In this document: positions 19,502 to 63,407 of the stretch, piece by piece
Layout of the letters: every line of letters starts with the position of its first letter
Numbering within the stretch: the stretch's first letter is position 1
IMG/VR virus record: IMGVR_UViG_3300021400_000048
Location: 56,791-120,790 of that record
Source of the DNA: a virus
Taxonomy: Duplodnaviria > Heunggongvirae > Uroviricota > Caudoviricetes
Reading direction: 5' to 3' (one strand)
DNA length: 64,000 nucleotides
The notes under the pieces: model-generated
The model's input: the letters and a program-made list of their open reading frames with translations, nothing else
The model's database searches: none
Told to the model about the DNA's origin: nothing
Made by a program: the position numbers and the translations under genes

Positions 19502-19509
19502 TCAGTCCA

Positions 19510-25500: not shown

Positions 25501-26262
25501 CTCTTAATCTAATAAGTCTTCAATAGCCATCTTAATTATCGCTGGTAAATGTTTAATATCTGTAGTAGAAGATATATGACTATTACTATTATTAGCATTT
25601 TCAATATAAACTTCTATTGTTGTATTTTTTATTAAATCTTCTAATGTAGCAGTTTTTATATTTTTTATATTAATATGGTGTTGGTGTGCTCATCAATTAC
25701 AAATTATTATTTCAAATATGCCATTTTTTGAAGTAAGACTAGTGTTAGCAATATTTTTATTTATACCAGTAATATAGCTATATTTAACAATACTTGGTTT
25801 TATACTAACTGGAGCCTCTGAAAAAATATCACAAGTTAGCCCATAAAAAGTTATTCTTTTATATTGTCATTTACCATTAATATAGTCTAAGTTAGAAAAA
25901 ACTTGTACAATTGATTCAGCAATTAAAAAAGCAACAGCTATATTTGCTTTGATATATTTTATAGCATCTAAAATAGTGACTGTATCATCTAATCTTCCTT
26001 CATTACCTGAGTATGCATAATTTAATAGAGTTATCATTAAAGTCTTATCAGAAAAAGCACCCATAGAATTTGAACACAAAGTCTTAAAACTGCTATATTG
26101 ATAAGTTCATGCTTGATAGTCTATAACAAAATTATACTTATAAATTAATTGTTGCAGGCCAGTATCTTGTTTTCATACCAAATTAAATAGCTCATCTACA
26201 TAATCCTTTGCCAATATTCCTGGCCAAGACATGACTTCAAGTTGTTGTTTTGTTACTGCCAT
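25501..26262 (-). CDS. hypothetical 253-aa protein (6 TGA-Trp), first gene behind class A motif 26294-26309
   Basis: ORF 25867..26079 extended both ways by hand; start MAVTKQQLEVMSWPG behind a GGAG RBS. Confidence 0.5.
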
Positions 26263-26333: not shown

Positions 26334-26859
26334 AATTATTATTAGGAATTCCTTCTAAAAATACTTTTTTATTTTGTTCTAATGACTTTTTAACATCAAT
26401 TACTCTTTGATTTCTACTGCCACGCCATCTATTATCATCTGAAATATCTCTTTGCTCTAAAATAAATGGTCCAACGACTACAACATCAATATATTGCATA
26501 ATTTCTAAATCTTTTACTTGTTCCCACTCATAACCTGTATAACACCAGATATCTTTATTTGGTAATTTTTCTTTAACTTTTTTAGCGATATCCAAAAAAC
26601 CATCTATATTGTTTTTGTGAAGTGGCTCTCCACCACAAAAAGTTAAGCCACGATAATACTCATGTGATAATTCTTTAAATAAACTATTTAAAACTGTTTG
26701 ATATTCTGCTTTATAATTTACACCCAAATCAAAGTCCCAAGCATTTTGATTATGACAACCTTTACAATGCAAATCACATCCGCTGCAATAAATTGATAAT
26801 CTTATCCCAGGCCCATCTGAAATTACACATTTTTTAATGTCTAAAATTCTCATAGCCAA
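26332..26859 (-). CDS. nrdG: anaerobic ribonucleotide reductase activating protein (radical SAM; CSGCDLHCKGC)
   Basis: 175-aa ORF, Cys motif, downstream of nrdD; hairpin + T-run terminator follows. Confidence 0.8.
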   Translation of the reverse strand: MAMRILDIKKCVISDGPGIRLSIYCSGCDLHCKGCHNQNAWDFDLGVNYKAEYQTVLNSLFKELSHEYYRGLTFCGGEPLHKNNIDGFLDIAKKVKEKLPNKDIWCYTGYEWEQVKDLEIMQYIDVVVVGPFILEQRDISDDNRWRGSRNQRVIDVKKSLEQNKKVFLEGIPNNN

Positions 26860-27415
26860 CCTCTAAAAATCTAATAAGTAGTGATCCAATAGCATTACCA
26901 ATTATTACAATACCAACTGCTAATAAGCCTTCCCAAGTTAATTCACAGGCACCATAATAGAAGCAGTCGGCAATACTATGCTCCATCGAACTAAGAATAA
27001 ATGCCATTACACAAATTATTACTGGAACACTAGAATCATACTTTTTCTTTAACTGAACAGCCAAATAAATTAAAGCACCACAGCCAATTCCATCAAATAA
27101 TAGTCTATACCATTCTTTTGCAAGTCTTGTATCCATTGCATGAGCTTCGCCTACAAATAGTTTATATAATAATCCACAAATAAAAGCTGTTGCTAAATTA
27201 ACTCCAAGAATAATTAAAGAGTCTAATAATTTTTGTTTATTATTAACATAGCCAATTTTTCCAGTAAATAAATTAGCTTCTAAAATAATTACAGCAATTA
27301 AACCAATACTAAATAAAAAAGCACCAACTATTTTATTTTCACAATTTAAATATATCATGCCAGCTAATGAAATTAATAAACCAGCTAAACTTGATTTTCT
27401 AATTAATTCTAACAT
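26834..27415 (-). CDS. 6-TM membrane protein, 193 aa, between nrdD and nrdG (ECF S-component-like; substrate unknown)
   Basis: ORF track; AGAGGTGAT RBS; class B cassette 27431-27466 immediately upstream. Confidence 0.5.
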   Translation of the reverse strand: MLELIRKSSLAGLLISLAGMIYLNCENKIVGAFLFSIGLIAVIILEANLFTGKIGYVNNKQKLLDSLIILGVNLATAFICGLLYKLFVGEAHAMDTRLAKEWYRLLFDGIGCGALIYLAVQLKKKYDSSVPVIICVMAFILSSMEHSIADCFYYGACELTWEGLLAVGIVIIGNAIGSLLIRFLEVGYENFRH

Positions 27416-27450: not shown

Positions 27451-27466
27451 TGTATTTCTACAGCTT
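27443..27466 (-). terminator. hairpin AAAGCTGTA-TTTC-TACAGCTTT after nrdD
   Basis: Overlaps the nrdD stop; its T-run is the class B -10 upstream tract. Confidence 0.6.
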
Positions 27467-28413
27467 TAAATATGCTTTACTCTATCTTCTACTTCTTTTT
27501 GCTTTCCATAATTAAAAGCAGTTTTATAGTTGCCAGTCAAATATCCTGTTACTCTTCTTAATTGTTGTATATTATGACTTCCACATGCTGGACATTTATC
27601 ATTAAATTCACCAGTATAGCCACAGTCTAAACAAGTATCATTTGGAATATTAATTGCAAAATATGGAATATCTTTATCCATTGCATAATTAACTAATTGT
27701 TCTAAGGCTTCTAAATTACCTGTTGCAGCTGAGCTTAACTCAACATAAGTAATACAGCCAGCATTTGAATATCCTGTTAATTGTGATTCAATGTCTATTT
27801 TTTCAAAAGCAGTGACTTTTTCCCAAACAGGAACATGAATACTATTTGTAAAATATTCACGATCTGAAACATTTGGAATTACACCATATTTTTCTTTAAA
27901 CTTTTTCATTGCTGTATAACATAAGTTTTCAGCAGGAGTATAATAAACACCAAAGTTTAAATGATATTGCTTTTTAAATTCAGCGCATCTATCTTTAAAT
28001 AATTGTTCAATTCTCTTAGCTAATTCCATACCTTCAGGTGTACATTGATTTTTGCCAATTAACAATTCAAGAGTTTCAGCTAAAGCAATTTGTCCAATAA
28101 CTAAAGTTCCATGTTTTAAAGCACTTCTAATACCTTGCTCAGGATGATAACCAATCATTGTATTATTTTCATACATAAATTTTGCTGAGCTTGGGCTTTG
28201 AGCACACATATATTCATAACGTTCAATTAACATATCTTTTGCTTCATGAATTTTGGCATCTAAAATAGCCATAAACGCATCAACATCTCTGTCTGCCTCC
28301 ATTGCTAAGGTAGGTAAAATAATTGTGACTGGGGCTAAATTTCCACGTCCATCTTTTGTTTGCGGGTTAACTCCTGGCTCTGCATTAATATCTGCGCCAT
28401 TTGCAGTTCTACA
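27466..28413 (-). CDS. nrdD: anaerobic ribonucleotide reductase, exon 2 (glycyl-radical RVTGYL, C-terminal Zn ribbon CLDCGY...CPACGSH)
   Basis: Exon 2 starts at the CRTANGADINAEPG...DGRGNLAPVTIILPTLAMEA region, which matches the remembered E. coli NrdD MGCRSFLG...DGRNNLGVISLNLPRIALEA. Confidence 0.75.
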   Translation of the reverse strand, partial: CRTANGADINAEPGVNPQTKDGRGNLAPVTIILPTLAMEADRDVDAFMAILDAKIHEAKDMLIERYEYMCAQSPSSAKFMYENNTMIGYHPEQGIRSALKHGTLVIGQIALAETLELLIGKNQCTPEGMELAKRIEQLFKDRCAEFKKQYHLNFGVYYTPAENLCYTAMKKFKEKYGVIPNVSDREYFTNSIHVPVWEKVTAFEKIDIESQLTGYSNAGCITYVELSSAATGNLEALEQLVNYAMDKDIPYFAINIPNDTCLDCGYTGEFNDKCPACGSHNIQQLRRVTGYLTGNYKTAFNYGKQKEVEDRVKHI

Positions 28414-28543
28414 CATGTTCTCAAATATTACTATTTGCACTGACTATATGTTCCATACTTCTGTATGGCCCTCCGCTTGGAACTGGTGCTTATCTCCAGC
28501 TCTACTCCGCTACACTCATCACGGATAGTCGATACACATTTAG

Positions 28544-29149
28544 TTAGATAAAATCATTTTCTTCATAAGCAAATTTATATTTATTCATAAAAGGTGTTTT
28601 TAACATATTCATGCAACGTCTTGTAACAAATTGATGATTTCCATAATTGAAATATCTTCTTGCGTCTTCAGCTGTTTCAAAATGAATAATTTCACCAGTT
28701 TCAATATTTAAACACTTAACTGCGTGAGCATTTGGATTTTTTCCACTCATTTTAGTTTGTCTAATTTTCTCTTTAATATCAAGCATTTCATCTTCAGTTT
28801 TACCTGCATATGTGTTACCACCACAACTAACTAAAGGATCTTGCACATTATAACCTTCTTCAATAGTATTTAATTTGAATACTCAATAATGTTCTCTTTC
28901 AGTTAATTGTTTTCTTGTACAATTTTCTAAATGCTCAAGTTCTTCAATTTGAAAATTATCAACACCATATTTTCTAATAGCTCTTGCAAACTTTGTATCT
29001 ATTTGATATTTATTACCAATAGAATCTTTTTGATGTTTTAATCATCTTCATTCAAGTGTTTTTGTTGTTTGACCAATATAAATTTTTTGATTAATTAAAT
29101 TAGTTATTTTATAAATATAACCAATTTCAAATGTTTTTGCTTTTGTCAT
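28544..29149 (-). CDS. GIY-YIG homing endonuclease (I-TevI-like; GYIYKITN...KIYIGQT; NUMOD3-like KMSGKNPNAH), 201 aa, 3 TGA-Trp
   Basis: Hand translation MTKAKTFEIGYIYKITNLINQKIYIGQTTKTLEWRWLKHQKD...EREHYWVFKLN. The TGA codons sit where I-TevI has Trp (FEKRWKRHFKD, ERENFWIKELN). Own class A motif at 29166-29184. Confidence 0.75.
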
Positions 29150-29165
29150 ATGCAATACCGTCCTA

Positions 29166-29184
29166 CAATTAATTTAGCAAATAA
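29166..29184 (-). promoter_or_regulatory. class A motif inside the nrdD intron, before the homing-endonuclease ORF
   Basis: TTATTTGCTAAATTAATTG, identical core to 20115-20132; about 20 nt before the ATG at 29149. Confidence 0.5.
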
Positions 29185-29318
29185 TTTTAGGGGTGTTGTA
29201 CATTTTTTATCTAACATTTAGCACGGTCTCATCCATTACAGGACCTAACCGTTAGCCGCTTTCGCGACACCCTTTAAGCAAGGTTCGAAGGGTTTTAGAT
29301 GGGCTATAGTTTACGCTT

Positions 29319-30554
29319 ACCCATCGTAGAAAAATATGTTTTAGGATCATTCCTATCATAACCAGCATTATTAGACCAGTCTACATTTGCATAATTTGGA
29401 TATAATCGTTTTGATGTAGATTTTAATGCTAATTGATACATATCATAATTTGGTGTTCCAGGTTTATCATTAACACCTTTCATATATTGGAATATACCAC
29501 AAGGGAAAATTGGTGTTCTATGAAGTTTTCCAACACCTTTTAAACTACCTTCAAGCAATGATTTAATAACCATTCTTCCTTCAGTTGATGTGCAAGTTCC
29601 GTAGTTGATGCTTGTAAATGGCAATTGGTTGCCCGAACGTGATTGTAGTGTGTTTAGATTGTGATACATTCCTTCAACTGCTTGATCTAATTCACGTTTA
29701 GTCATTTTTAAAGCATACTTATAGGCACCTTCATACTTTTGATATTCTTTAGCATCAATTGGTCTATTTATTGCTTCATAGCAGAAAAAAGTATCTTTTG
29801 GTTCATCTATATTTTCAACAAATTCAAGTCCATCTTTAAAATGTTTTGCAAATGATTTTCTAACATAAGGAACCATTGTCCAGTCTAAATGTGTTGCAGA
29901 AACACCACCAAATTGTTGTAAGCTTTGTAATTGGAATATTACAGCAACTAATTGAAATGCTGTATTTACTGAGCTTGCTGGCCTTATATCTGTCTGTCTT
30001 GTATTGAAGCCTTTTGCAAGTAAATCATCAAATGGAATTGATAAACAATTGTGCATTCCAACAGCATAACTATCTAAATCATGAATATAAATTTCATTAT
30101 TTAAATGATTATTTCTTGATTTTTCAGACATACAATAATTTAAAGCAAGTTCTTTCATTAATACTGAATCAGCTTCACCTTTTCTACCACCAAATGAGTG
30201 TTCGTCAACATTCGCGTTCTGATTAACAATATGCATACCAGAAAGCTTATCACCAATTTCCTTCATCATTTTAGACTTGCCTTGTCTAATTCTCGTTCTT
30301 TGGTCTCTATACAAGATATATTGTTTTGCAGTAGCTTTAAACTTACTAACTAATAAAGCATGCTCAACTAAATCTTGAATTTGTTCAACATTTAAATCTG
30401 TAATGTTTTCACATTTACTTACTACTGAAGCTACAATTTTATCAATTTCTTCTTCAGTCATTTCTAAACTTCTACTATTAGCTTTACTAATTGCAGATCT
30501 AATTTTGGAACTATCAAAATCACGTTTAGTTCCGTCACGTTTTGTAATTAACAT
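29319..30554 (-). CDS. nrdD: anaerobic ribonucleotide reductase, exon 1 (ATP-cone N-terminus)
   Basis: ORF 29304..30554 minus its last 5 codons, which are intron; AAAGGTGAT RBS. Confidence 0.75.
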
Positions 30555-31448: not shown

Positions 31449-32546
31449 CTATGGAATAACTACAGTTGATACATCATCTGAACTCATATATGTTTCTGGT
31501 AAAATACCATTCCATTGTTGAGTATAGTAATACTTAATTAGATTTTCTGCACCAACTTTTAATTCAGCATCAGATACTAATGTTCCATCTGGTTTAACTA
31601 ACGTATTAATACCTTCATTATTTGTAACAACTGTCCAACCATTAATTGAAGCTAGTCTTTGCATTGCAATACTTGCTTCTTTCTTACCTTGATATTCAGC
31701 ACTATCAGCACCAATTTGTGCAACATCTTTGTCTGCTTGTGCTTTAATTCTTGCAACTTCTGCTTCAGCTTCAGCTCGCTTTGTAGCAGCTTCTGCTTCA
31801 GCTTCTGCTTGCAAAATAGCAACTTGTTTTTGATTTTCTGCTTCAGCTAATTTTTGTTCTTGTTCAATTAGAGCTTGTTGCTTCTTTTGTTCTTGAGCAA
31901 CTTTAGCTGCTACTGCAGCTTCAAAATCATCGGTAAAATCAATATTAGTTAATACAATAGTTTTAACATTAACATAATAGCCAGTATTGATACTTGCATC
32001 TACTGTTTGACTGATATTTGCACTAATTTGACTTCTATTGTTAATTACATCAGTCGCTGTATTTTGTGCAAATACTGATTTAATATTATCTAATGCAATA
32101 GATGTAATTTTTGATTCAAGTTTTTCGATTGAACCATATTCAGTAGCAATCTTATCAACTTGTGCAGCATCAATAGTGTATTGTAAATCAGCAGTTACAC
32201 CAATAATCTGATTATCCTTAGAGTAAGTCTGAGTTTCAATATTAATTTCCCTAACCTTAGTATCATACTTTTCATATTTATTAGTAAAATATGAATCCCA
32301 ATGAACACCAGCTTCTCTTGTACCAGTGACCTTTCCTAAATGTCTAACAACTGCAACTTCACCAGTATCTACTTGATGAATGTTACCAGGAATTGCAATT
32401 GTCAAAATTAAGAATAAAATTGCTAAAATACTTCCAGCGATTTTTCCGCCATTACTTTCATCTTCAGCGAATGATACGCCAGCCCAAATACCTGTACCAA
32501 TTGTAGCTAAAATAAATACTACAAATAAAATAATTTTAATAGCCAT
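31449..32546 (-). CDS. SPFH / band-7 (prohibitin-HflKC-like) membrane protein with an Ala/Glu coiled coil
   Basis: N-terminal TM, SPFH-like core, AEAEAEAATKRAEAEAE coiled coil; real TAG stop. Confidence 0.65.
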   Translation of the reverse strand: MAIKIILFVVFILATIGTGIWAGVSFAEDESNGGKIAGSILAILFLILTIAIPGNIHQVDTGEVAVVRHLGKVTGTREAGVHWDSYFTNKYEKYDTKVREINIETQTYSKDNQIIGVTADLQYTIDAAQVDKIATEYGSIEKLESKITSIALDNIKSVFAQNTATDVINNRSQISANISQTVDASINTGYYVNVKTIVLTNIDFTDDFEAAVAAKVAQEQKKQQALIEQEQKLAEAENQKQVAILQAEAEAEAATKRAEAEAEVARIKAQADKDVAQIGADSAEYQGKKEASIAMQRLASINGWTVVTNNEGINTLVKPDGTLVSDAELKVGAENLIKYYYTQQWNGILPETYMSSDDVSTVVIP

Positions 32547-34891
32547 TATTTAATTTCCTTTCGTGCTAAAAATTTTTCTCTCATTGAAATAATATCTGTT
32601 TTATAAGGATATTCTTTTGTTTCAGGATCTCTATCATTTTTATAGCATTCTCTACAAAAACCGTAGAATAAATTCTTTTCAGGAGTTAGTAATGAACCAA
32701 CTCTACTATAACCACCACAGCGTAATGTAGAATCTGCAACACCTCTTAAATGTTTCCAATTATTATAGTATTCAGATTTACATTTTGTCATAAAGCCATC
32801 TTCATCTACAAACACAAAGCCTTCAATATAATTTCCATTATATTTATATTCTTCATCTTGTAATGCATTATATAACTCATTAAATTCATCAAAATCTTTT
32901 AATGTATAAGCTAATTCTTTAACTGGACAACCAATTTCAGTTGCAAGTTGTTTTAAAGCATTATAAGGCATAGTTTCAAACTTTAAGTCATTTCTAATTG
33001 CATCAAGTAAAACTACTTTTGGTTTGTCATATTTAATAATATGTGGGTCATTTTCTGGATCAATACATTCAAATACTAATGACCAAGATAAATTATGCTT
33101 GCCAAATAGCTTTGCAGTTTCATAACAACCTTTAAGTGTTGCTAATAGCTTTTCTTTATAAGGCTCAATAATAGTCTTAATATAACCAGCATAATCTCCA
33201 GTATTAGTTGATTTAGAAGCAATAAATAAATCATCATTCTTATAATCGTAAGAAACAATAGCTAAGAAACCATTTTCTTTAACATAAGCTTGAACTGGGA
33301 ATTTTAATTTAGATCTTAAGTTTACAATATTAGTTGCTTTTGTTTCATTAATTCTGAAAAACTTTTCATATGAACGAGCCATAATTTTATTATTTTCAGT
33401 ATCAATAAATAAACCACGAGCTAAAACTGTTTGTCTATTCCAGTTAGCAGAATAAAAAGCTTCTCTTGTAAAGTTAAATGATGAAATTCCATTTGCTAAT
33501 TGCTTTTCACTTACAAATTGATTTTCTCTTAAATATTTAACTGCATCTTCAACAGTTTCAACTTTAACAAGACCTAATTCTTTTTCTTCTTGTGTAATTG
33601 GTTGAACACTTTCTAATTCAACAGAATTCCATTTATACATAGTATTTAGACCAACACAAATTCTAGAACCTTTTGGAAATGGCCCATCATCTGTTGTATA
33701 GCCATATTCTGGCATATAACCAAGATGTTCTAATTCAACAATTCTTAACTTACCACCAAACTCAACACCACCTTCAAGATTAAATACTCTATCAGCATAT
33801 TGAATAGGATCTTCATTTGTATTTCTGTGACCATGAATTAAATATTGATTATCTTTTGTAGTTGTCATCCAAGTATCTGCAACTGTTGAATAATCTTTAT
33901 ATTGACCTACGCCATTAATAAATGCATATGTTGGAATTGTCATTAATGTCTCTGGAAGTGATGGAATACCGCCATGACAAGCCATAATTTCCATATTACC
34001 CCATTTAATATATGACATTTGACGAAGTTTTGAACAAAATACTCTTGCTTGTTTTGGAGTAATATTCCCAGCAATTAATTCAGGTTTTGTTTTTTCTTCA
34101 AATTCCATTGATTTAGATTTTAATTCATTTCCATAGTCTTTTAAATGTTTTTCATGATTGCCTTCTAATAAACAAACATTTGGTTTATCTTTAATAGACA
34201 TTAAAAAATTGAATACTTCTACATTTTGATGGCCTCTGTCTAAATAATCACCGATAAAAATATATTCAGTATCATCTTTTAAACCATCTTTGAAATCAGG
34301 ATATTGCATTAAAGTATCATAACAGCCATGAATATCACCAATAAAAACTAATTTTCTATATGATGATAAATCAACTGGCTCAGCTTTAATAATATCTTTA
34401 AATTCTTCCGGTTTAATTATAGTAAGACCAGACGGAACAGGTTGAGACTCAAATCTTGCATAAATATTTTTAACTGCTGCTTCTGGAACAATTTTATATT
34501 GGTCTCTCATTTTATTTTGTGCTAAACAAGTTTCAAGTGGAACTGTTGTAAAGTCAACAACATAAATATGATAACGATAAATAGCAGCAATATCTTTATA
34601 TTGTTTTAAATCTTTTGTTTTTGAAGCTGTTGCATCAATAACTGTCATTTCACCACGCTTCATTCTATATTCTAAAATATTGAATAAAGTTGCCCAAACA
34701 GCATTTTCAGTAGCAGGTTCTTGCTCAATACAAAAACTACCATCTGGTTGCCATTTCTTTGAGCTGTGTAAAACTCTTAATTCATCAGGACAAATAGTAT
34801 AAGCTTCTAAATGATTTTCTCTAATCCAAGTAGATTTACCTGCACCAGGAGCACCACGAGTAATAAATAAGGCTCTAATAATAATCACCAC
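32546..34891 (-). CDS. Pnkp-like RNA/DNA end-healing and sealing enzyme: P-loop 5' kinase (GAPGAGKST) + calcineurin-type phosphoesterase (GDIHG, GDYLDRG, GNHE) + C-terminal ligase-like adenylyltransferase (KENG)
   Basis: Motifs in the 781-aa ORF in the order kinase-phosphatase-ligase, as in bacterial Pnkp; alternative GTG start; 8 TGG, 0 TGA. Confidence 0.7.
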   Translation of the reverse strand: MVIIIRALFITRGAPGAGKSTWIRENHLEAYTICPDELRVLHSSKKWQPDGSFCIEQEPATENAVWATLFNILEYRMKRGEMTVIDATASKTKDLKQYKDIAAIYRYHIYVVDFTTVPLETCLAQNKMRDQYKIVPEAAVKNIYARFESQPVPSGLTIIKPEEFKDIIKAEPVDLSSYRKLVFIGDIHGCYDTLMQYPDFKDGLKDDTEYIFIGDYLDRGHQNVEVFNFLMSIKDKPNVCLLEGNHEKHLKDYGNELKSKSMEFEEKTKPELIAGNITPKQARVFCSKLRQMSYIKWGNMEIMACHGGIPSLPETLMTIPTYAFINGVGQYKDYSTVADTWMTTTKDNQYLIHGHRNTNEDPIQYADRVFNLEGGVEFGGKLRIVELEHLGYMPEYGYTTDDGPFPKGSRICVGLNTMYKWNSVELESVQPITQEEKELGLVKVETVEDAVKYLRENQFVSEKQLANGISSFNFTREAFYSANWNRQTVLARGLFIDTENNKIMARSYEKFFRINETKATNIVNLRSKLKFPVQAYVKENGFLAIVSYDYKNDDLFIASKSTNTGDYAGYIKTIIEPYKEKLLATLKGCYETAKLFGKHNLSWSLVFECIDPENDPHIIKYDKPKVVLLDAIRNDLKFETMPYNALKQLATEIGCPVKELAYTLKDFDEFNELYNALQDEEYKYNGNYIEGFVFVDEDGFMTKCKSEYYNNWKHLRGVADSTLRCGGYSRVGSLLTPEKNLFYGFCRECYKNDRDPETKEYPYKTDIISMREKFLARKEIK

Positions 34892-42033: not shown

Positions 42034-42792
42034 TTAAAGTCTCTTATGTTTTAATTTCTGTCTTTCATTAAATTTTAATATATCTTCTAGTAATTCTGCG
42101 TCTGCAAAATTAGCAATAGCTGGCACATCTTTATCCAGACAATGACTAGAAAAATACGGGTGATCTTTATAGACAAATGTATGACTTGGATTTACACGTG
42201 GATCTAAAATAAATAATTCTCTTAAGTCTTCATAATCAACACCAATATTATTTGCTATTTCATAAAATTGACAGCAAAAAGCTACTTTTGTTGCTAACCA
42301 AGAATTTTCCATATATTTTGCCAGTTCTGCTGTTTTACTATCAACTATTCTAAATGTATGCCTTGCATCATAAACATTTTGTAATAATTGTTGAACTTCT
42401 AGACAATCTTTTTTATCTCCACCTAAGATAGTAAAATCAAAATAAAAATTATTACAATGTTGTGTTCCACCGTAATATTCAGGACTAAAAACTATTTTTT
42501 TCTTTGTTATTTCTTTTAGCTTATCAATACTTCCTGGCAAGATAGTTGATTTAATGATATAAATATTTGCATCATGCTCATTTATTACCTCAATTAAATC
42601 ATCTATAGGTGCTTCAACAGTATCCATTTTTTTAGTATCTATACAGATAAAACAAAAGTCATATTTAGTCTTTTTCTTAACACTATAACTTGGTTTATAT
42701 TTATCATAAATATCTGGTTCTAATACTTTTATTTCTTCGTATAAATTATGACCAACTACACCATATCCTACAATTAAAACTTTTTTTCTCAT
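42034..42792 (-). CDS. nucleotide-sugar dehydrogenase-like protein (NAD-binding LIVGYGVVG, STILPGS, central AELAKYMENSWLATK); lacks the C-terminal UDP-binding domain
   Basis: UDP-glucose/GDP-mannose dehydrogenase family motifs in the 252-aa ORF; class B cassette 42806-42850 upstream. Confidence 0.55.
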   Translation of the reverse strand: MRKKVLIVGYGVVGHNLYEEIKVLEPDIYDKYKPSYSVKKKTKYDFCFICIDTKKMDTVEAPIDDLIEVINEHDANIYIIKSTILPGSIDKLKEITKKKIVFSPEYYGGTQHCNNFYFDFTILGGDKKDCLEVQQLLQNVYDARHTFRIVDSKTAELAKYMENSWLATKVAFCCQFYEIANNIGVDYEDLRELFILDPRVNPSHTFVYKDHPYFSSHCLDKDVPAIANFADAELLEDILKFNERQKLKHKRL

Positions 42793-42805
42793 ATAAAACC
42801 TCTTT

Positions 42806-42828
42806 ATATATTATACAATAATAAAAAG
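42806..42828 (-). promoter_or_regulatory. class B promoter TTATTATTGTATAATATATAAAGAGG
   Basis: Fused to perfect 10-bp hairpin 42826-42849; before the ATG at 42792. Confidence 0.6.
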
Positions 42829-42849
42829 ACTAATTTAATAATTAGTCTT
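42826..42849 (-). terminator. hairpin AAGACTAATT-TAAT-AATTAGTCTT
   Basis: 3' of the gene ending at 42842; fused to a class B promoter. Confidence 0.6.
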
Positions 42850-44407
42850 CATTTATAATTTTTCATAATGCATCTTCTAATTCTTTACTTCAGCCTTCTA
42901 CACTATTACAGATAAATTTTATATTAGGATTTTGTAATGCATCTGCAAATTTATTATCAAATATTTCTTTACTTCAAATACCAAGCCTAATATTATCATC
43001 TAAAATAGGTGCTTTATGCGCAAATGAATTAAAATAAACATCCTCAGGAACATAGCTTTCTTCTCGCATATTAAATTTATCTCACAAATTCTTAAGCCTC
43101 TCAAATTCAAAATAGCAAGGAAAATGCGTAGTATAATTTATATGGGTAAAATTTTCTCTGTCCATTAATTGTCTTGTTTTTCATTTATCATGTTTTCAAT
43201 ATGATGTTGGTAAATCTTTTCTACCAATAAAAGTTGGTTGATGATAATATATAGTATTTATATCTTTAAAGCTAAAAGGTTTAATAGCATAATTATCATC
43301 TACCATATAAATAAAACCATCATACTTATCTTTAAAATGATCGTAGGCTATTTCCATTTTATGCTGAATATCTAAATGTGGATTATACTGACCTAATTTT
43401 TTTTCTTTATTTTTAATATATATAAAATCTACCCAAGGAAATTCTTCAATTAATGACTGTTCAAATTCGCCAATAACAGCAAAATGATACTTAAAAGTAC
43501 AAAATTTTTTCCAACAATTTAAAGCTAATTTTATTTCATTACCTTGTGCATGACTTTGGCTAAAAGGTAATACAACTAAAATTTCTTTATTTAATTCATC
43601 TAACAATTGCTTTTTTAACTGTAGCATATCTGAATTTATCGTAAAAAAGGCATCAAATGTTCTAACTATACCCATAAAATAACCTCTTAAAGTTTTTTTT
43701 CAGATATATTCTTCTCAAGATTTAGTTATATAATGTCTTAAATAAATATTATTGTAGACAAGCTCATTTGGGTCTTTGTTAAATTTTGTATTGCAAAAAT
43801 TACAAATATCATTTGGAATATGATTAGTATTTCAAAATTCTTTTTTATACTTTTTTAAATTATAGCAAGGTTTTTTATTACAAGTTCTATCTTTTAAACG
43901 AACAAAACCAGATATTTTTTTAGTAAAAGTTTCTATAACACCTTTATTTGAATAATCTGGCCTATCTATTAACCCATTGGCACCATAGCATTCTCATGAT
44001 AATATAAAAGCATCATAATCTACAAATAAATTAAATATATCTGATAATGATTTATCTTTTTCTAATGTAATAAATTCATCATTATCGATAACAAAAACTC
44101 AATCATAGCTTTCAGAATATTTAGCTTTTAAAAAATTCATACCACTTCTTAAATATATCTGTTGTGCACTACTCTTCTTTGTTTTTTTATATTCAATTGC
44201 CTTATTAATGCCTACTTCTGTAAGTATAGCTGTAATACTTTGCAGTGTTACTCTATCGCCATATTTATCTGTAATAGCTTTATGTGATAAACTATCTATA
44301 TCTTCAAATATAAATATATGATTAACACCTATATCTAAATGATATTTTATTCACTCATCTAAATATAGGTGTTCATTTTTAATAACTGTTAATATACAAG
44401 AAGTCAT
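42842..44407 (-). CDS. two-domain glycosyltransferase, 521 aa: GT92-like N-terminus (NEHLYLDEWIKYHLDIGVNHIFIFED) + GT-A-like C-terminus (FIYMVDDNY); about 10 TGA-Trp
   Basis: Continuous in-frame hand translation from the ATG at 44405-44407 (TAATG overlap with the upstream stop) through ORF 43196..43675 to a TAA at 42842; no stop between the two halves. Confidence 0.55.
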
Positions 44408-45636
44408 TATTCGTAATAGTCTTCTCCTGGCTCTTCTTCGCTATTAGCATCTCCATTGCCTGAGCCTGATCCAGATCCACTGCCTGAACCTCCGCCGCCA
44501 CCATTATAGGCTTCTGCTGCTGTTGTACTTCAAGTTTCATCATTACATATAATGGCAAGATTCATATTTTCGTTTGCACAATAAAAAGCAAATAATACAT
44601 TATCTTTATATGTTGTATCATCCTTAATTCCATCTATAGTGCCATCATAATAAATAGTAGCACTACTAAGATAATCAGATGCTTCCTCTGTGTTATTAAA
44701 AGCATCAGCTGCTACACTAGTTACAGTCCTTGGTATAGTGATGGAAGTAAGTGCAGTACCCTTAAAAGCAGAGTTGCCAATTGTAGTCAAAGCAGCAGGT
44801 AAACTTATATATTGTAATTCTTCACAGCCTTCAAAAGCATAGCTACCAATTACTTCAACATCTTCACGAATATTAATTTGTGAAAGGCTTGTACACCCTT
44901 GAAAACAACTATCTGAAATGCCAGCTTCACTTGATCAAATAACACTAGTTAAATTATCACATTCACAAAAAGCACCATTACCAACAACAATTACATCCCC
45001 AGGAATTGTAATACTTGATATTCCGCATCTTCTAAAAGCATAAATTCCAATCTCTTCCAGATACTCAGGTAATGTTAGATTAGTTAAACTAGAAGTATCT
45101 TCGAAAGCAGATATTCCAATTTTTTTAAGTTCTGGTGGAAAAATTATACCTACAAGATCTCCATCATCTTTAAAAATATTATCAAATAACATTGTTATGT
45201 CATGCTCATTCCCACTACTATCTACAAATATTGCTGGTATATTAGCTATATGAGTCGAATCTGTAGATATTCCCTGTGGTGCAGCTACTATTTGATTGAT
45301 AATAGTGCCAAAAGGAACTGTTGTTCTGCCTTTAGTCTGCGCTTCTGCTAAGCATTTTAAGATATTTCTAAAATAATCTTTTGTATCAACACTTGTCTCA
45401 GAGCTGCTGGGGCAGTTATAAATATGTGCACCAACCGCATATATTCCAGCTGTTGGTACATTGAAGTAGTATGATATAAATTTACTACCCTTTAATTCAT
45501 CTAAGATGTTTTCTCCTAAAATATCACCCGAAACATTCTTTGACCCTCTGATTATATCAGCAGCTTTACCTAACACTTCTCTTAAATCATTAATATCATA
45601 ATTAGGCATATTAGAAACGCTCCTGTAATAATGCAT
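44407..45636 (-). CDS. BspA-type leucine-rich-repeat protein with a C-terminal Gly/Ser linker and acidic tail, 409 aa (2 TGA-Trp)
   Basis: ORFs 44935..45636 and 44530..44790 in the same frame joined through TGA; repeats IGISAFEDTSSLTNLTLP / IGIYAFRRCGISSITIP / VIGSYAFEGCEELQYISLP; tail GGGGGSGSGSGSGSGNGD. Confidence 0.6.
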
Positions 45637-46033
45637 CTAAATCAGCAGAGTGATTATCAAATGTTCCAGTTACTCCTAAAATAGTTACACCAGACCTAAT
45701 GTTTCCAACTACTAAATCTGCATCTACAACTTGTGCAGTAGCATAAGCAGCTACATCTACTTGTTCTGTAGTTGTAATATCAATATTTCCTATTGGTGTT
45801 GGTCCACCGCCTTGAACATCTACATCTGCAGAAGCATATTCTGCAACATCATAAGTGCCATTTTCAGTAATACTAATAGTTCCTGTAGGTACTGGTGCTG
45901 GTTCTTCCTCACCATCTAAAACTGCTCTATCAATAAGAGCAACATCATCATTAGCAGGAATTCCTGAATAGCTACCAGTAAGAGTTCCTTGCTTTTCATA
46001 AACTAATTTAAATTTTTTGTTTTCTTCTGCCAT
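45611..46033 (-). CDS. 140-aa protein sharing its N-terminal about 45 aa with 46056..46556
   Basis: MAEENKKFKLVYEKQGTLTGSYSGIPANDD... versus MAETKQYKLVYEKEGELKGSYSGIPANDD... Confidence 0.55.
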   Translation of the reverse strand: MAEENKKFKLVYEKQGTLTGSYSGIPANDDVALIDRAVLDGEEEPAPVPTGTISITENGTYDVAEYASADVDVQGGGPTPIGNIDITTTEQVDVAAYATAQVVDADLVVGNIRSGVTILGVTGTFDNHSADLDALLQERF

Positions 46034-46055
46034 TTTATATCTCCTTAATTAACAA

Positions 46056-46556
46056 TTACTTTGTTGTTAAATATGCGTCTAATGGTGTTCCAACTTCAGC
46101 ATCTATCTCACAAATGATTGAATCAAAAGTGTTATGTTCTTCAGCACTTGGGTCATCTGCATAAATATCAACTAGATTATTTAAATTTTTATAATAATCT
46201 TCTTCAACTGTATCATATGCTACTATTATATATTCTTTATCATTATATATAAATCTAAATGGACAATGATAGTCTGCATTTACACTTAGTTCTATAATAT
46301 CATTAATAGTGAGATAAACACTTTCATCGAAATGATAATGATTATCTTCAGCATTAAAAACTGTTTCACCTAAATCGAATGGTACTAATTTGTGGTATAT
46401 TTCAGTTGGATCTGTCGGTGTAACAGGATCTTCTTTTCCTTCTAATACAGCTCTTTTAATAACATCAGTATCATCATTTGCTGGAATGCCACTATAACTT
46501 CCTTTTAATTCACCTTCTTTTTCATAAACTAATTTGTATTGTTTTGTTTCTGCCAT
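46056..46556 (-). CDS. 166-aa paralog, same N-terminal module with a different C-terminus
   Basis: ORF track; shared N-terminus with the gene above. Confidence 0.55.
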   Translation of the reverse strand: MAETKQYKLVYEKEGELKGSYSGIPANDDTDVIKRAVLEGKEDPVTPTDPTEIYHKLVPFDLGETVFNAEDNHYHFDESVYLTINDIIELSVNADYHCPFRFIYNDKEYIIVAYDTVEEDYYKNLNNLVDIYADDPSAEEHNTFDSIICEIDAEVGTPLDAYLTTK

Positions 46557-51074: not shown

Positions 51075-51494
51075 TTAATAATTACAGCCAAAAGCACCAA
51101 AAGCATGAATTATTTTGCCATCTTTTGTTTTATATTTTTCTTCATAAGTTTCCATTTCACATTCTTGTTCAAATTGCTCAAAAGTATGATAATCATACCT
51201 TAAGCTATCGTCACTTCCATTACAAAAACCATCAATAATAGACTTAGCAAAATCTTCATAGCTCTCAGGATTTAAGCCAGTTTCTTTACAATATTTCTCC
51301 CATTGCTCTTTATTATAGCGTTCAAGACTTTTTATTAAATTTTCTTTTTTTACAATATCCATACCATAATAAAAACTACCAACAAGAAATGCTTCATTAT
51401 TTTTTAAAGCTTTGAAGTCATCATCTTCACACATTACTAAACTGTGTGTTGAACTTGAGTTTGTTTCAAAACAATTTCGTCTAATTTGTAACAT
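51075..51494 (-). CDS. 139-aa protein with an ML.IRRN.FETNSSS.HSLV N-terminus (paralog of 51756..52673)
   Basis: ORF track; shared N-terminal motif. Confidence 0.5.
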   Translation of the reverse strand: MLQIRRNCFETNSSSTHSLVMCEDDDFKALKNNEAFLVGSFYYGMDIVKKENLIKSLERYNKEQWEKYCKETGLNPESYEDFAKSIIDGFCNGSDDSLRYDYHTFEQFEQECEMETYEEKYKTKDGKIIHAFGAFGCNY

Positions 51495-51507: not shown

Positions 51508-51756
51508 CTATTTATTAAAAATTACGTCTTCTTCCAATTCTTTAGCTAATTTACTAATAGAGACTTTATTTGTAAGATGTGTTATCTCTTTAATAAAAGA
51601 AGCTTTAAAACAATATTTTTTCCAAATATCATCAAGTGGTAATAATAAATATTCTTTATTTTTTGGTACTAACCAGCCATTAAATTTATCGCCATCAATA
51701 GTTTCTACTATAACTGCTTTATATAAAGCATAATTATCTATATAACTTTTTTTCAT
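51508..51756 (-). CDS. hypothetical 82-aa protein
   Basis: ORF track. Confidence 0.45.
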   Translation of the reverse strand: MKKSYIDNYALYKAVIVETIDGDKFNGWLVPKNKEYLLLPLDDIWKKYCFKASFIKEITHLTNKVSISKLAKELEEDVIFNK

Positions 51757-52673
51757 TATAAACCTACCACTTGTTCATCATCACATTCAACAACAACTTC
51801 ATCAAAAATAGATTTATCAATAGATGAGACATCAATTACTTCTGTTGTATCATTATCAATGATTAATCTAATCTTTAATTCTGGCTTTGTTTCTTTTGCT
51901 AACTTAATAATATCTTTAACTTTGCTTTTACTGTTATTAAATTTAACAACAGCTTCTTGTTCATAAATCTTGAAATCAATTGTTTTAACTTTATCATCAA
52001 TATCAGCGATAAGTTCTTCATCATTTTCTTTAGTCCAATCTTTAAGCCAGCTAGCATAAATAGTATAGTTAGCATTATTCCAGAAATCGACACCAGAAGA
52101 AATATCTTCAAAGTTATCTGTATTAATAATTCTTGCTTCAACTAAATCTTTGAAATTTTGAATTTCATCACCATCGACAATGATAATATATTTTGGATTT
52201 AAAATTAAGTCTTCCCAATCAATTCCTTTTCTTTTGACAAAATGCATTGGGTCTTCACCAGTATCATTACTATAAACTGCACCATAATTTTTATTCTTAT
52301 TTTCTTTCCTATCCCAATGATTAACTCTATACAAAAAAACTTTAGCTGGGTCATCAATGCCAGTTTGTTTCATAACAAAGTTTTTAATTCTGTCAACATC
52401 TTTCTTATTAGGTTCACCACGCCAAGTTCCTAAAGTGTATGCAGAATAATATCTTAACTTTTGAAGTGGTGTTGATAAAATTTGAAAAGGTGATCTTTCA
52501 TAGCTCATATCACTTTCATCACAATATCTCCAAAGTTCAAATGCTTTTTGATACTCAGGATTATAATTTAATGCCAACTCTTCTTTAGTATAAGTTCTTG
52601 CTTGCTTAGTAATAACTAAACTATGCATACTTGAACTGTTTGTTTCAAAAACATTTCTTCTAATATTAAGCAT
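51756..52673 (-). CDS. 305-aa protein, same FETNSSS.HSLV N-terminal module
   Basis: ORF track; TAATG overlap with the downstream gene. Confidence 0.5.
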   Translation of the reverse strand: MLNIRRNVFETNSSSMHSLVITKQARTYTKEELALNYNPEYQKAFELWRYCDESDMSYERSPFQILSTPLQKLRYYSAYTLGTWRGEPNKKDVDRIKNFVMKQTGIDDPAKVFLYRVNHWDRKENKNKNYGAVYSNDTGEDPMHFVKRKGIDWEDLILNPKYIIIVDGDEIQNFKDLVEARIINTDNFEDISSGVDFWNNANYTIYASWLKDWTKENDEELIADIDDKVKTIDFKIYEQEAVVKFNNSKSKVKDIIKLAKETKPELKIRLIIDNDTTEVIDVSSIDKSIFDEVVVECDDEQVVGL

Positions 52674-63105: not shown

Positions 63106-63108
63106 ACC

Positions 63109-63183
63109 TACTACTAACAGGAATCGAACCTGTGCATAGATGCTTACACAGCACCATGCTCTTAGCCACTGAGCTATAGTAAT
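63109..63183 (-). tRNA. tRNA-like gene with an aberrant anticodon arm (UGU/Thr or GUG/His reading; no encoded CCA)
   Basis: Minus-strand sequence ATTACTA-TA-GCTC-AGTGGCTAA-GAGC-AT-GGTGC-TGTGTAA-GCATC-TATGC-ACAGG-TTCGATT-CCTGT-TAGTAGT-A. Acceptor (1 G.U), D arm and T arm (GGTTCGATTCC) are canonical. The anticodon loop has G at position 33 in the only 5-bp-stem fold. Confidence 0.6.
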
Positions 63184-63407
63184 AAGTTCACTACGACGAA
63201 GTAATTGTAGGCCGTATAATTCGAATTGACTCCGATATATAGCTCTTTTCCGGATAGTGTGATATATACCTTCAAGCCCTTCCTTTATAATATCTTCTAA
63301 GACATATTATCCGTCAATAACTGTTTCTTATATTTTTTTATAATGGTGCTTCTACATATTACTCTCATAGATGTCATAGGAAGTCAACTAAGACTTCTCA
63401 TGTTTCA

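Follow-up and report, generated by a model that had tools for sequence, protein, structure and literature searches.

A TGA-dependent gene cassette of a recoded phage pairs a Gly-Ser-tailed LRR protein with putative sugar-transferring enzymes

The window (the whole stretch of DNA analysed, 64,000 nucleotides) comes from a gut phage, probably of the rumen, and holds no terminase gene. Re-examination found all five cassette genes densely packed and in the same orientation (Table 1), and the coordinates and gene order given in the first-pass annotation were correct. The observation stood for the five genes and their order, but not for a standard-code 521-aa ORF, an LRR start at 45636 and a GT-A second half. 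The products match all three families guessed there, namely a BspA-type LRR protein, a GT92-like enzyme and a dehydrogenase relative without its C-terminal domain. Inspection by eye revealed no signal peptide or membrane segment in the five products.

Table 1. Features of the cassette and its neighbours, in positions of the window
Feature	Position	Strand	Description
Downstream neighbour, 474 aa	40532..41956	-	4 in-frame TGA; no family match
Short UDP-glucose/GDP-mannose dehydrogenase relative, 252 aa	42034..42792	-	Rossmann and central domain
521-aa enzyme, C-terminal domain (residues ~262-521)	42842..43624	-	Divergent Stealth-like fold; 6 TGA
521-aa enzyme, N-terminal domain (residues ~1-245)	43673..44407	-	GT92-like GT-A glycosyltransferase; IDNDEF; 6 TGA
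BspA-type LRR protein, 400 aa	44407..45609	-	2 in-frame TGA: 44935-44937, 44530-44532
(Gly-Ser)5 run	44461..44490	-	Inside LRR tail GGGGGSGSGSGSGSGNGDANSEEEPGEDYYE; proposed glycan acceptor
par2, 140 aa	45611..46033	-	N-module, Pro-rich linker, two ~27-aa repeats, NIRSGVTILGVTGTF motif, tail ADLDALLQERF
par1, 166 aa	46056..46556	-	45-aa N-module, Pro/Thr linker, par1-type C-terminal domain
Upstream neighbour, 356 aa	46578..47648	-	3 in-frame TGA; no family match

Neither the LRR gene nor the 521-aa ORF of the window stays open unless TGA is read as tryptophan, a recoding left unstated in the first-pass annotation. The 521-aa ORF had been described as having no stop; the fusion is real under this reading and absent in the standard code, as the ORF contains 12 in-frame TGA codons (two in the LRR gene). 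Alignment placed 10 of the 12 opposite TGG-encoded tryptophan in orthologues, so the 521-aa reading is correct, and a frameshift or assembly artefact is ruled out. The recoding changes the nature of the cassette, which is a member of a TGA-dependent gene class.

TGA is read as tryptophan in about a third of this phage's genes, and code 4 yields 76 minus-strand genes covering 94% of the window. Tryptophan codon use among window genes is bimodal (chi2 170, df 59, p 1e-12): 35 of the tryptophan-containing genes use TGG only, for example those for NrdD, NrdG, DNA ligase and the kinase-phosphatase-RNA-ligase, and 13 use TGA only. The users of TGA include a 903-aa fibre-like protein, holin-like and spanin-like genes, a giant repeat protein and the cassette genes; wherever a function can be recognised in this group, it is that of a fibre-like or lysis gene. 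Few genes of the window carry TGA as densely as the enzyme gene, and the upstream neighbour belongs to the same TGA-dependent class. The par1 and par2 genes contain no tryptophan codon and the short dehydrogenase gene has one TGG and no TGA. The same TGG/TGA split between gene classes has been described in recoded gut phages (Borges et al., bioRxiv 10.1101/2021.08.26.457843), for which late translation of TGA-dependent genes is the published model (same source) and a presumption here.

This timing would lose its basis if the host itself used code 4, as a Mollicute-like bacterium does, and we judge such a host improbable. It would suit the AT-rich genome (25-34% GC), the binning of one related contig into a 'Tenericutes' MAG, the fusion in some relatives of par2-type repeats to DUF285, first described in Mycoplasma, and the outcome of a search for a suppressor tRNA, which found none. 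However, it gives no reason to avoid TGA in nucleotide-metabolism genes, as the 35 TGG-only against 13 TGA-only genes indicate. Enzyme orthologues in sister phages use TGG throughout, one with an in-frame TAG, so the code differs among close relatives; even the enzyme gene on the 'Tenericutes' contig has 19 TGG and one TGA. Furthermore, an early gene harbours a recoded homing endonuclease, which fits the published model with a standard-code host.

Comparison of par1 and par2 by BLASTP revealed 32 identical residues out of 52 at the N-terminus (E 5e-19) and no significant similarity between the C-termini, in agreement with the common 45-aa N-terminus and unrelated C-termini first noticed. Their DNA differs at many synonymous sites, which indicates an old duplication kept at the protein level. 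The C-terminal swapping suspected from this pair is family-wide in relatives: the N-module heads ~110 clusters of proteins, 65-873 aa long, whose C-termini are of at least four types. In family members the N-module is followed by a Pro linker, ~27-aa repeats in varying number and a variable head; domain shuffling includes par2-type repeats fused to LRR_5/DUF285 domains, and in some relatives N-module, repeats and GS tail lie within one 873-aa polypeptide. The N-terminus of the downstream neighbour did not match the N-module significantly (E 0.16). The two par2 repeats follow the consensus ITENGTYDVxxYAxAxVxV, and a protein identical to par2 (P0121) was found on public contigs of 97 and 109 kb. 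Relatives of par1 conserve an xTDAETGDS motif close to the C-terminal end. A diversifying apparatus had also been suggested; no diversifying mechanism was seen.

The LRR protein matches Pfam LRR_5 (BspA type, E 6e-42) and carries the expected (GS)n tract near its end. Its gene most likely starts at 45609, one nucleotide past the par2 stop; AGGAG precedes it as an upstream motif, and at its far end the stop and the enzyme start codon overlap (TAATG). The (Gly-Ser)5 run is encoded by mixed serine codons (TCA, AGT and TCT). Six-frame translation of the window and of 21 fetched loci gave 2,237 ORFs; with a threshold of at least four GS repeats, a survey of these identified 13 distinct ORFs, all LRR-type and at most 3.6 kb from the enzyme gene; in the fetched loci such runs were confined to proteins beside that gene. 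The run-bearing gene lies directly upstream of the enzyme gene in 9 of 12 independent loci surveyed, and in 10 of 13 when the separately fetched L023 is added, whose run-bearing protein is a non-LRR protein of 265 aa ending in SGSGSGSGN. One locus (L020) carries (GS)15. In the three loci lacking a directly upstream Gly-Ser gene, the upstream LRR is cut off by the contig end (L003), the LRR neighbour is absent (L005) or an epimerase gene intervenes (L006). The loci surveyed were picked for having the enzyme and are of common ancestry, so the cases of Gly-Ser association are not independent of one another. Gly-Ser runs also serve as ordinary flexible linkers, which counts against the acceptor role favoured below.

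The GT92-like fusion in one ORF is genuine, since more than 120 homologues of ~520 aa with 55-64% identity keep both domains. AF2 models were obtained with pLDDT of 91.8 and 92.6. The N-terminal domain matches by fold GalS1 (GT92) and the flagellin O-GlcNAc transferase GmaR, and the enzyme's weaker fold matches include TarP, a prophage teichoic-acid transferase. The C-terminal domain, assigned to GT-A (DxD) in the first-pass annotation, is unrecognisable as such by sequence; in the predicted models its fold is closest to the Stealth hexose-1-phosphate transferases. Sequence comparison gave no Pfam Stealth match and no PDB match for this domain. Its motifs are an invariant DD pair (MVDDNY) and C-N-S; 'CNS' stands in place of the 'CLND/CIND' of Stealth CR4, and no residue could be assigned as the essential CR3 arginine. 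Among 185,579 bacterial and archaeal species genomes only three matches occur, all on MAG contigs; the enzyme family is almost absent from bacteria and archaea and essentially phage-restricted.

Glycosylation of phage DNA (hypermodified bases) to evade restriction, a common role of phage glycosyltransferases, is highly improbable for this enzyme. Nucleotide-metabolism genes are present in the window; however, the scanned proteins included no recognisable hydroxymethylase or other product of a base-modification gene, the enzyme falls in the TGA class rather than the replication class, and adjacency to Gly-Ser proteins would be unexplained. Neither the GT92 nor the Stealth fold is known to include DNA transferases.

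The short dehydrogenase matches the UDPG_MGDP_dh central domain (E 4e-14) and, weakly, the N domain, and has no C-terminal (nucleotide-sugar-binding) domain, as first described. The Rossmann motif (GYGVVG) and the catalytic K..N and C-L-D-K-D motifs are intact. This short form constitutes a large family of ~250 aa with intact catalytic motifs. Lack of the domain that normally holds the nucleotide sugar counts against a glycosylating role for the cassette.

Analysis of related loci revealed LRR genes flanking the enzyme gene in most of them. The genes form a row: a fibre protein ending in ..D(A/E)L(L/M)QExF, an LRR protein with a (GS)n tail, the two-domain enzyme and the short dehydrogenase, with an AsnB-like amidotransferase and a GT2 as optional members between the last two. 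The row recurs in two distant TGA-recoded relatives (L016 and L019), with AsnB-like, GT2 and pyruvyl-transferase genes added. In L016 it is flanked by a Gp23 (capsid) fragment and, directly downstream, by a T4 gp13-like neck gene, which puts it where T4 has wac; in L019 a collagen-like fibre gene stands beside it. The IMG/VR loci with the enzyme lack the par1, par2 and short dehydrogenase genes, so the full five-gene cassette is conserved only in closer relatives. The pairing of an LRR/Gly-Ser gene with sugar enzymes recurs in many large uncultured phages and is previously undescribed. The link between glycans and a surface protein, proposed earlier with a mis-assigned second enzyme domain, is strengthened by this conserved synteny and the Gly-Ser association.

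These neighbourhoods bear on whether the LRR and par proteins are instead soluble effectors, intracellular or released by lysis, with Gly-Ser runs as plain linkers and the enzymes serving another target. Searches of PHROGs and Pfam assigned none of par1, par2, the LRR N-domain and the neighbours to a structural family, LRR domains serve in protein binding generally, and three enzyme loci lack an adjacent Gly-Ser protein. Nevertheless, we find this reading quite unlikely: cassette products fall, like those of fibre-like and lysis genes, in the TGA-dependent class, the N-module layout is fibre-like, and the row adjoins fibre, capsid and neck genes in L019 and L016. In small siphophages a par2-type repeat protein sits between the major capsid and head-closure genes, a head-decoration position; this sole positional clue for the repeats points to the head and not to a tail receptor-binding site, which argues against an adhesin as well.

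The enzymes might also act on a polymer of the host envelope, be it wall teichoic acid, capsule or a different surface glycan, e.g. to block superinfection or keep progeny from sticking to debris, with the LRR and par proteins as mere neighbours. Phage-encoded cytoplasmic GT-A enzymes act so elsewhere (TarP being such a match), bacterial Stealth enzymes make phosphodiester-linked capsule polymers, duplicated-GT92 architectures resemble polymerases, and the AsnB-like, GT2, epimerase and pyruvyl-transferase genes of relatives are a typical polysaccharide toolkit. Yet the loci examined have no priming transferase, flippase, polymerase or export gene, the TGA-dense enzyme gene would be late by the published model, when host-surface remodelling is of little value, and the tight, repeated adjacency (stop/start overlap) to Gly-Ser-tract proteins is left unexplained. 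We regard this explanation as unlikely.

Overall, we tentatively propose, with slightly less than even confidence, that the cassette is a virion fibre or adhesin module in which the adjacent enzymes glycosylate, and possibly phosphoglycosylate, the Gly-Ser tract. This TGA-dependent module would combine surface parts with enzymes decorating one of them. The N-module may be a common docking piece for alternative bodies at one particle site, a par1-type head or a par2-type repeat shaft, with par2 carrying the LRR protein at its end. Serines of the (GS)n tract would be modified in the cytoplasm of the infected cell: the Stealth-like domain is a candidate for the transfer of sugar-1-phosphate and the GT92-like domain for adding or extending a sugar, and the short dehydrogenase may supply or create uronic acid. 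The adhesin would thereby gain a stalk that is glycan-coated, protease-resistant or adhesive. As the cassette genes need TGA suppression, their proteins would be made only after the phage's code switch.

T4 fibritin and tail fibres and lactococcal receptor-binding proteins have a conserved N-terminal anchor and exchangeable distal parts. The cassette family resembles them in its short conserved N-terminus, linker, variable-length repeat shaft and variable heads; no sequence or fold relation to them was found, and particle attachment is a proposal here. The Stealth family (human GNPTAB, M. tuberculosis CpsY and meningococcal capsule polymerases) differs in that the cassette domain has no sequence-level match to it and is fused to a GT92-like domain. 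GalS1 (a GT92 galactan synthase) and Listeria GmaR share ~15% identity with the cassette enzyme. Cultured lytic Microbacterium cluster EC phages (e.g. Gina gp89/gp90) have a pair of overlapping genes for a glycosyltransferase and a 'UDP-glucose dehydrogenase' (266 aa, ~30% identity across 98% of the short dehydrogenase of the window); the glycosyltransferase there is of another kind and has only 246 aa, and no LRR or Gly-Ser protein is adjacent.

Mycobacteriophages put glycans on terminal extensions of structural proteins with their own glycosyltransferases (Freeman et al. 2023, via PMC12619734), likewise cytoplasmic and phage-encoded. Their targets are capsid and tail-tube C-termini, whereas the target proposed here, from gene content, is the LRR Gly-Ser tract; no Stealth-like domain or short dehydrogenase is described for those phages. 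By analogy only, the tract may be likened to Dictyostelium proteinase I (GlcNAc-1-P-Ser phosphoglycosylation), given the Stealth-like fold, and to the environmental TLP-2 'glycofibril', modelled as (X-Ser)n with Ser-phosphodiester-linked glycans (bioRxiv 10.1101/2025.09.30.679562). Each has one serine per dipeptide unit, here beside a sugar-1-phosphate-transferase-type fold; TLP-2 forms long fibrils, whereas the tracts here are of just 4-15 repeats and lie terminally or within a linker of a folded protein. Finally, the phage differs from 'Agate'-type gut and rumen phages in that no suppressor tRNA was found, and the cassette is not described by Borges et al. (bioRxiv 10.1101/2021.08.26.457843). 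It resembles them in reading TGA as tryptophan in fibre-like and lysis genes rather than replication and nucleotide genes, in a recoded homing endonuclease inside an early gene, and in low-GC contigs of ~90-110 kb with close relatives using other codes.

Analysis of the minus-strand cassette at 42034-46556 in the standard code revealed clean open reading frames for the paralogues par1 and par2, which have a common N-terminal module of 45 aa, and for the short dehydrogenase; the gene for the leucine-rich-repeat (LRR) protein and that for the two-domain enzyme were fragmented. The enzyme frame, read from 44407 down to 42842 with the three stop codons marked separately, contains 12 TGA and no TAA or TAG, and the LRR frame contains two in-frame TGA. 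A codon alignment with eight IMG/VR orthologues, most of which have no TGA at all in this gene, placed TGG-encoded tryptophan at 10 of the 12 TGA positions of the enzyme, which indicates that TGA is read as tryptophan and that the 521-aa product is real. The uninterrupted 521-aa ORF of the first-pass annotation therefore does not exist in the standard code and stands once TGA is read as tryptophan; a frameshift or assembly artefact, which had been considered as an explanation of the fusion, is excluded by the same alignment. A public 97-kb scaffold from sample SAMN02144230, which we take to be a sheep-rumen sample, already carries this row (166, 140, 400, 521 and 252 aa) in gene calls made with code 4 (TGA read as tryptophan).

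Features of the window and of related loci (coordinates of L-numbered loci, fetched around enzyme homologues, are those of the locus)
Feature	Coordinates	Strand	Size	Remarks
par1	46056..46556	-	166 aa	
par2	45611..46033	-	140 aa	
LRR protein	44407..45609	-	400 aa	C-terminal (Gly-Ser)5 run
Two-domain enzyme	42842..44407	-	521 aa	GT92-like N-domain, Stealth-like C-domain
Short dehydrogenase	42034..42792	-	252 aa	
Giant ORF	1..13696	-	>4,565 codons	runs past window start; 74 in-frame TGA, 28 TGG
Tandem pair	13722..14327; 14345..14671	-		39% identical over 76 aa (E 4e-7), divergent remainders; directly upstream of giant ORF
Holin-like and spanin-like genes	19181..20055	-		adjacent genes: holin-like (PHROG E 1e-6); spanin-like or membrane-anchored coiled-coil
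Distant paralogues	20749..21519; 25504..26262	-		25% identical over 203 aa (E 2e-9); 7 and 5 TGA
Transporter ORF	26834..27415	-	193 aa	match to formate/nitrite transporter family, E 4e-20; flanked by nrdG and nrdD C-part
Split nrdD	27466..30554	-		
nrdD C-part	27466..28440	-	324 aa	
GIY-YIG-type endonuclease ORF	28544..29155	-		3 TGA, no TGG
nrdD N-part	29304..30554	-	416 aa	
Kinase-phosphatase-ligase	32546..34891	-	781 aa	TGG only, 9 Trp
Common-head pair	51075..51494; 51756..52673	-		small ORF between; first 23 aa 74% identical (E 3e-7), rest divergent
tRNA-Thr(UGU)	63108..63184	-		sole RNA gene found in window
L001, enzyme orthologue	10001..11539			TAA between the two domains
L008, enzyme orthologue	2790..4352			two in-frame TAG
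L019, collagen-like protein	4837..6219		460 aa	G-x-y repeat; two genes upstream of LRR gene
L020, (GS)15 protein	8603..9994			491-kb phage
L025, stand-alone Stealth-like domain	5980..6741		253 aa	62% identical

The window has a GC content of 25-34%, with nearly every gene on the minus strand; code 4 gives 76 minus-strand genes, which together span 94% of the window and none of which ends in TGA. Analysis of tryptophan codons revealed a bimodal distribution across genes, with TGG only in 35, TGA only in 13 and both in 12 (chi2 170, df 59, p 1e-12). The TGG-only set includes both NrdD halves, NrdG, DNA ligase and the kinase-phosphatase-RNA-ligase, and the TGA set includes a 903-aa fibre-like protein, the holin-like and spanin-like genes, the GIY-YIG endonuclease, the giant ORF, the enzyme, the LRR gene and both cassette-flanking genes (474 aa downstream and 356 aa upstream). 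Recoding is confined to a subset of genes (structural, lysis), the early genes being in the standard code, and the in-frame TGA of the holin-like and spanin-like genes is consistent with lysis-gene recoding. A rival reading is that the host itself uses code 4: no suppressor tRNA or code-change gene was found in the window and the 10 kb past its right end (on a related contig), a search that covered all but about 33 kb of the source scaffold; beside this stand the early genes in the standard code. The same partial pattern, including a recoded intron endonuclease in an early gene, occurs in recoded gut phages (Borges et al., bioRxiv 10.1101/2021.08.26.457843), and partial TGA recoding is an already-known kind of phenomenon. 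The recoded endonuclease ORF that interrupts nrdD in the window matches the arrangement reported for Agate phages; no group I intron was found at the nrdD split at the Rfam gathering score, and nrdD is intact (738 aa) in L003 and L010.

The code of the enzyme gene varies among relatives. The L008 orthologue has in-frame TAG where others have glutamine or proline, which suggests a TAG-to-Gln recoded phage, and L002 and L009 share with L001 the TAA between the enzyme's two domains. Judged by these codons, the same enzyme gene seems to be read in three different codes among sister phages. For annotation, the standard code breaks two central cassette genes and hides a nearby gene of >4,500 codons entirely: the 13.7 kb of the giant ORF look almost non-coding in it. 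This ORF is rich in threonine, serine and asparagine, has repeated '..TITWTA..YAF' units and by eye contains stretches resembling Listeria-Bacteroides repeats ('YTVTFDSTGGS'); since coordinate mapping extends the source scaffold about 15 kb past the window start, the giant protein may be much larger. Among the other genes of the window, the 781-aa protein is an RNA-repair enzyme in which P-loop kinase, calcineurin-like phosphatase and T4 Rnl1-type RNA ligase parts are fused; it is 37-41% identical to SPbeta-like, Staphylococcus K-like and Alicyclobacillus phage proteins. The transporter ORF, shorter than its 240-position profile, is unusual phage cargo.

The two-domain enzyme belongs to a family of >120 proteins of about 520 aa, 55-64% identical over their full length, on contigs of up to 491 kb. 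Pfam Glyco_tranf_2_4 matches residues 10-123 of the window enzyme and GT92 (PF01697) matches many homologues; with this profile match and a DxD-type motif, the enzyme has the features of GT92 and GT-A proteins. The family profile gave weak PDB matches to GalS1 (GT92) and to the flagellin O-GlcNAc transferase GmaR. Variants have the GT92-like domain duplicated, an epimerase/dehydratase fused, the halves split by TAA, or a single half alone. A tblastn search of 50,697 phage records with the enzyme gave one weak partial match only.

The second domain had been annotated as GT-A (DxD) and is re-assigned here, its fold being closest to the Stealth transferases. In a structure model of the orthologue P0010 (64% identical to the window enzyme), the C-domain is predicted to have the catalytic-domain fold of Stealth hexose-1-phosphate transferases. 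The best fold matches (score; matched length) were human GNPTAB (19.3; 229), a second GNPTAB entry (18.8; 224), fly GNPT (17.7; 214) and M. tuberculosis CpsY (17.1; 209 of 263), followed by generic GT-A folds at 11.9 or less, and giant-virus 'Stealth protein' entries were also among the viral fold matches. Comparison by eye, without superposition, with published Stealth motifs (PMC10668966) revealed partial likeness of ILVVLPF in the window to CR1 'IDVVYTF'; the Mg-binding aspartic acid of CR2 lies in N-x-D and the window has V-D-D with DD invariant, and CR4 'CLND/CIND' compares with FICNS, in which C-N-S is invariant. Stealth transferases have in addition an arginine in CR3 that is essential and touches the phosphate of the donor. 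The C-domain sequences of 15 family members gave no Pfam match at E up to 10 and no PDB match. Because a match in sequence is absent and the motifs are partial, the domain is called Stealth-like by fold and not a member of the family. A stand-alone copy occurs in L025, a red deer contig binned as Candidatus Gastranaerophilales and one of just three matches among 185,579 species genomes; it lies about 1.9 kb downstream of a 278-aa ORF that appears GT2-like by eye.

We surveyed all six-frame ORFs of the window together with those of 21 fetched loci, in total 2,237 ORFs with 303,425 residues. Just 13 distinct ORFs contain (GS) runs of at least four, and all 13 are LRR-type and lie within 3.6 kb of the enzyme gene. 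A run-bearing gene is directly upstream of the enzyme gene in nine of the 12 independent loci of the survey, and at a 13th locus (L023, from a MAG) this place is taken by a 265-aa non-LRR protein that ends SGSGSGSGN, giving 10 of 13; the pattern is absent from three loci. All the loci were chosen via the enzyme and share common ancestry. In the window, L007, L016, L019 and L023 the tract forms a C-terminal tail; elsewhere it is an N-proximal linker. The L020 protein, encoded directly upstream of an enzyme-epimerase fusion, has the longest tracts seen, (GS)15 and (GS)7, near its N-terminus. The tract is mostly absent from LRR paralogues farther from the enzyme, and the mixed serine codons of the window tract indicate that it is not a simple DNA microsatellite. 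A rival reading is that the enzymes modify a host envelope polymer.

The dehydrogenase aligns to residues 78-280 of GDP-mannose dehydrogenase and keeps the Lys/Asn pair and the Cys-x3-Asp motif; in the alignment, SSHCLDKD of the window corresponds to GGSCLPKD of AlgD and AKYMEN to IKYTCN. The central domain PF00984 scored 52.9 bits against a cut-off of 25.4, and the NAD-binding domain PF03721 scored 19.3 bits, under its cut-off of 27, with a GYGVVG motif present and precomputed PF03721 matches in many homologues. The protein ends about 20 residues past the catalytic cysteine motif and is without the C-terminal nucleotide-sugar-binding domain. The PF00984 match and the early end confirm the initial description as a nucleotide-sugar dehydrogenase lacking that domain. 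The best 120 of 1,675 homologues (E up to 1e-10) are all 242-287 aa long, with 64-97% identity, so the short form is not a truncation; judged from sequence, the protein is a distinct short subfamily and not a canonical UDP-glucose/GDP-mannose dehydrogenase. Several homologues share contigs with enzyme homologues.

par1 and par2 are 62% identical over their first 52 residues (E 5e-19), with many synonymous DNA differences, and no significant further copy was found in the window. The downstream 474-aa gene has a similar N-terminus at E about 1 and 0.16 and is not claimed as a third copy. A database search with par2, followed by an N-module profile search, yielded proteins of 65-873 aa that are headed by the N-module and fall into about 110 clusters at the 50% identity level. 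The N-module has the consensus MAxxKKFKLVYEKxGxLKGSYSGIPAxDDVxLIERAVLEG and is followed by a Pro-rich linker. The module is always N-terminal and in some proteins doubled; it is followed by 0 to about 10 repeats of ~27 aa (ITENGxYDVxxYAxAxVxVP) and then by one of several unrelated ends. The proposal of a shared N-terminus with swappable C-termini is thus correct for the two paralogues and general across this family. The par2 type is 'repeat + NIKKDVxILGVxGT + DELMQExF', the par1 type has a conserved xTDAETGDS motif, and one 873-aa protein has N-module, repeats and a large body and ends in QSGSGSGSGSGY. The ~27-aa repeats are found ahead of LRR_5 or DUF285 domains as well, and in proteins of 128-158 aa that begin with another N-module; on 36-kb siphophage contigs, the gene for a protein of this latter kind lies one 69-aa ORF 3' of the major capsid gene and 5' of the head-closure gene. 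No Pfam or PHROGs family was matched by par1, by par2, by either flanking gene or by any of ten long N-module proteins, and par2 found nothing by tblastn in the 50,697 phage records. Elsewhere in the window, two more pairs (the tandem pair and the common-head pair) repeat the design of a common head with different bodies.

Pfam LRR_5 (PF13306) matches the LRR protein in two stretches at 143 bits (cut-off 27.7, E 6e-42), far over the curated cut-off, which bears out its assignment as BspA-type. Its C-terminus consists of the Gly-Ser run and an acidic tail. BspA-type bacterial surface proteins have an export signal or anchor; no hydrophobic one was visible by eye in the N-terminus of the window protein, MPNYDINDLREVLGK. 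A rival reading takes the LRR and par proteins as non-virion effectors; the three enzyme loci without the Gly-Ser pattern speak for it, and the position of the siphophage repeat proteins close to the capsid gene speaks against it. A par2-LRR frameshift fusion was considered and dropped, since one nucleotide separates the par2 stop from the LRR start and a good ribosome-binding site (AGGAG) with ATG explains the junction; the LRR stop overlaps the enzyme start in TAATG. Scans for sigma-70-type promoters and terminators were at chance level, and the T4 late-promoter motif TATAAATA was found 35 times (26 expected), not clearly enriched and not positioned upstream of genes.

In most related loci LRR genes flank the enzyme gene, often as paralogue arrays with a shared N-module of their own and a Pro-rich linker, and the whole row is kept in two more distant TGA-recoded contigs. 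L016 has a small GT-A-like gene, a par2-like gene, an LRR gene ending GGSGSGSGSGSGY, the enzyme, an AsnB-like gene, the short dehydrogenase (73% identical) and a T4 gp13-like gene, with a Gp23 fragment and a pyruvyl-transferase gene upstream. L019 has the collagen-like gene, a 732-aa repeat fibre ending DALDELMQESF, an LRR gene ending GGGGGGGSGSGSGSGY, the enzyme, an AsnB-like gene, a GT2 gene and the short dehydrogenase. The LRR N-domains are related between these two (E 2e-27) and each to the window at 0.002-0.04. The 13 enzyme-bearing IMG/VR loci are without par1, par2, the dehydrogenase, the LRR N-domain and the flanking genes; IMG/VR searches with par1 and with the dehydrogenase gave zero confirmed loci, and megablast of 20 kb against the 50,697 phage records gave no match.

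The cassette is most simply explained as a TGA-dependent module that would encode parts of surface fibres or adhesins, with the Gly-Ser tract glycosylated by the enzymes encoded next to it. We infer the steps of this account, namely that the products are virion components, that serine is the acceptor, that a phosphodiester is formed and that expression is late. The initial interpretation as a glycosylation or adsorption cassette is partly supported: the conserved synteny of LRR, enzyme and dehydrogenase genes and the Gly-Ser association strengthen a link between glycans and a surface protein, and the second enzyme domain had been mis-assigned. DNA glycosylation by these enzymes is ranked lowest among the rival readings. 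The Stealth-like fold raises the further possibility that sugar-1-phosphate is put on serine. A rather improbable version of the glycosylation account would have the Stealth-like domain place sugar-1-phosphate on the (Gly-Ser)n serines, with extension by the GT92-like domain and accessory enzymes, giving a virion-adhesin stalk sheathed in glycan; glycan coats on adhesins could bear on host range, on adhesion to mucus or plant fibre and on immune recognition.

Serine-linked sugar-1-phosphate (protein phosphoglycosylation) is so far known from protists, e.g. Dictyostelium; in the environmental 'glycofibrils' made of dipeptide repeats, for which no gene of origin is known, its presence is an inference (bioRxiv 10.1101/2025.09.30.679562). 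If the phosphoglycosylation reading is true, the cassette would be the first genetic system in prokaryotic viruses to join an (X-Ser)n acceptor with the phosphoglycosyl transferase that acts on it. Neither the pairing of a Gly-Ser-tract protein, a GT92/Stealth-like enzyme and a short dehydrogenase nor the N-module fibre family has been described, as far as the literature consulted shows. In cultured Microbacterium cluster EC phages, a 266-aa dehydrogenase relative, known from annotation, overlaps a glycosyltransferase gene. Mycobacteriophages glycosylate their own structural proteins (as summarised in PMC12619734), and a few actinobacteriophages are the only phages whose particles have been shown to be glycosylated. 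If correct, the glycosylation account would add to these the large uncultured phages of gut and rumen, some with genomes of up to 491 kb, and would bring a new enzyme architecture, a GT92-like domain with a sequence-invisible Stealth-like fold, together with a simple predicted acceptor, the Gly-Ser tract.
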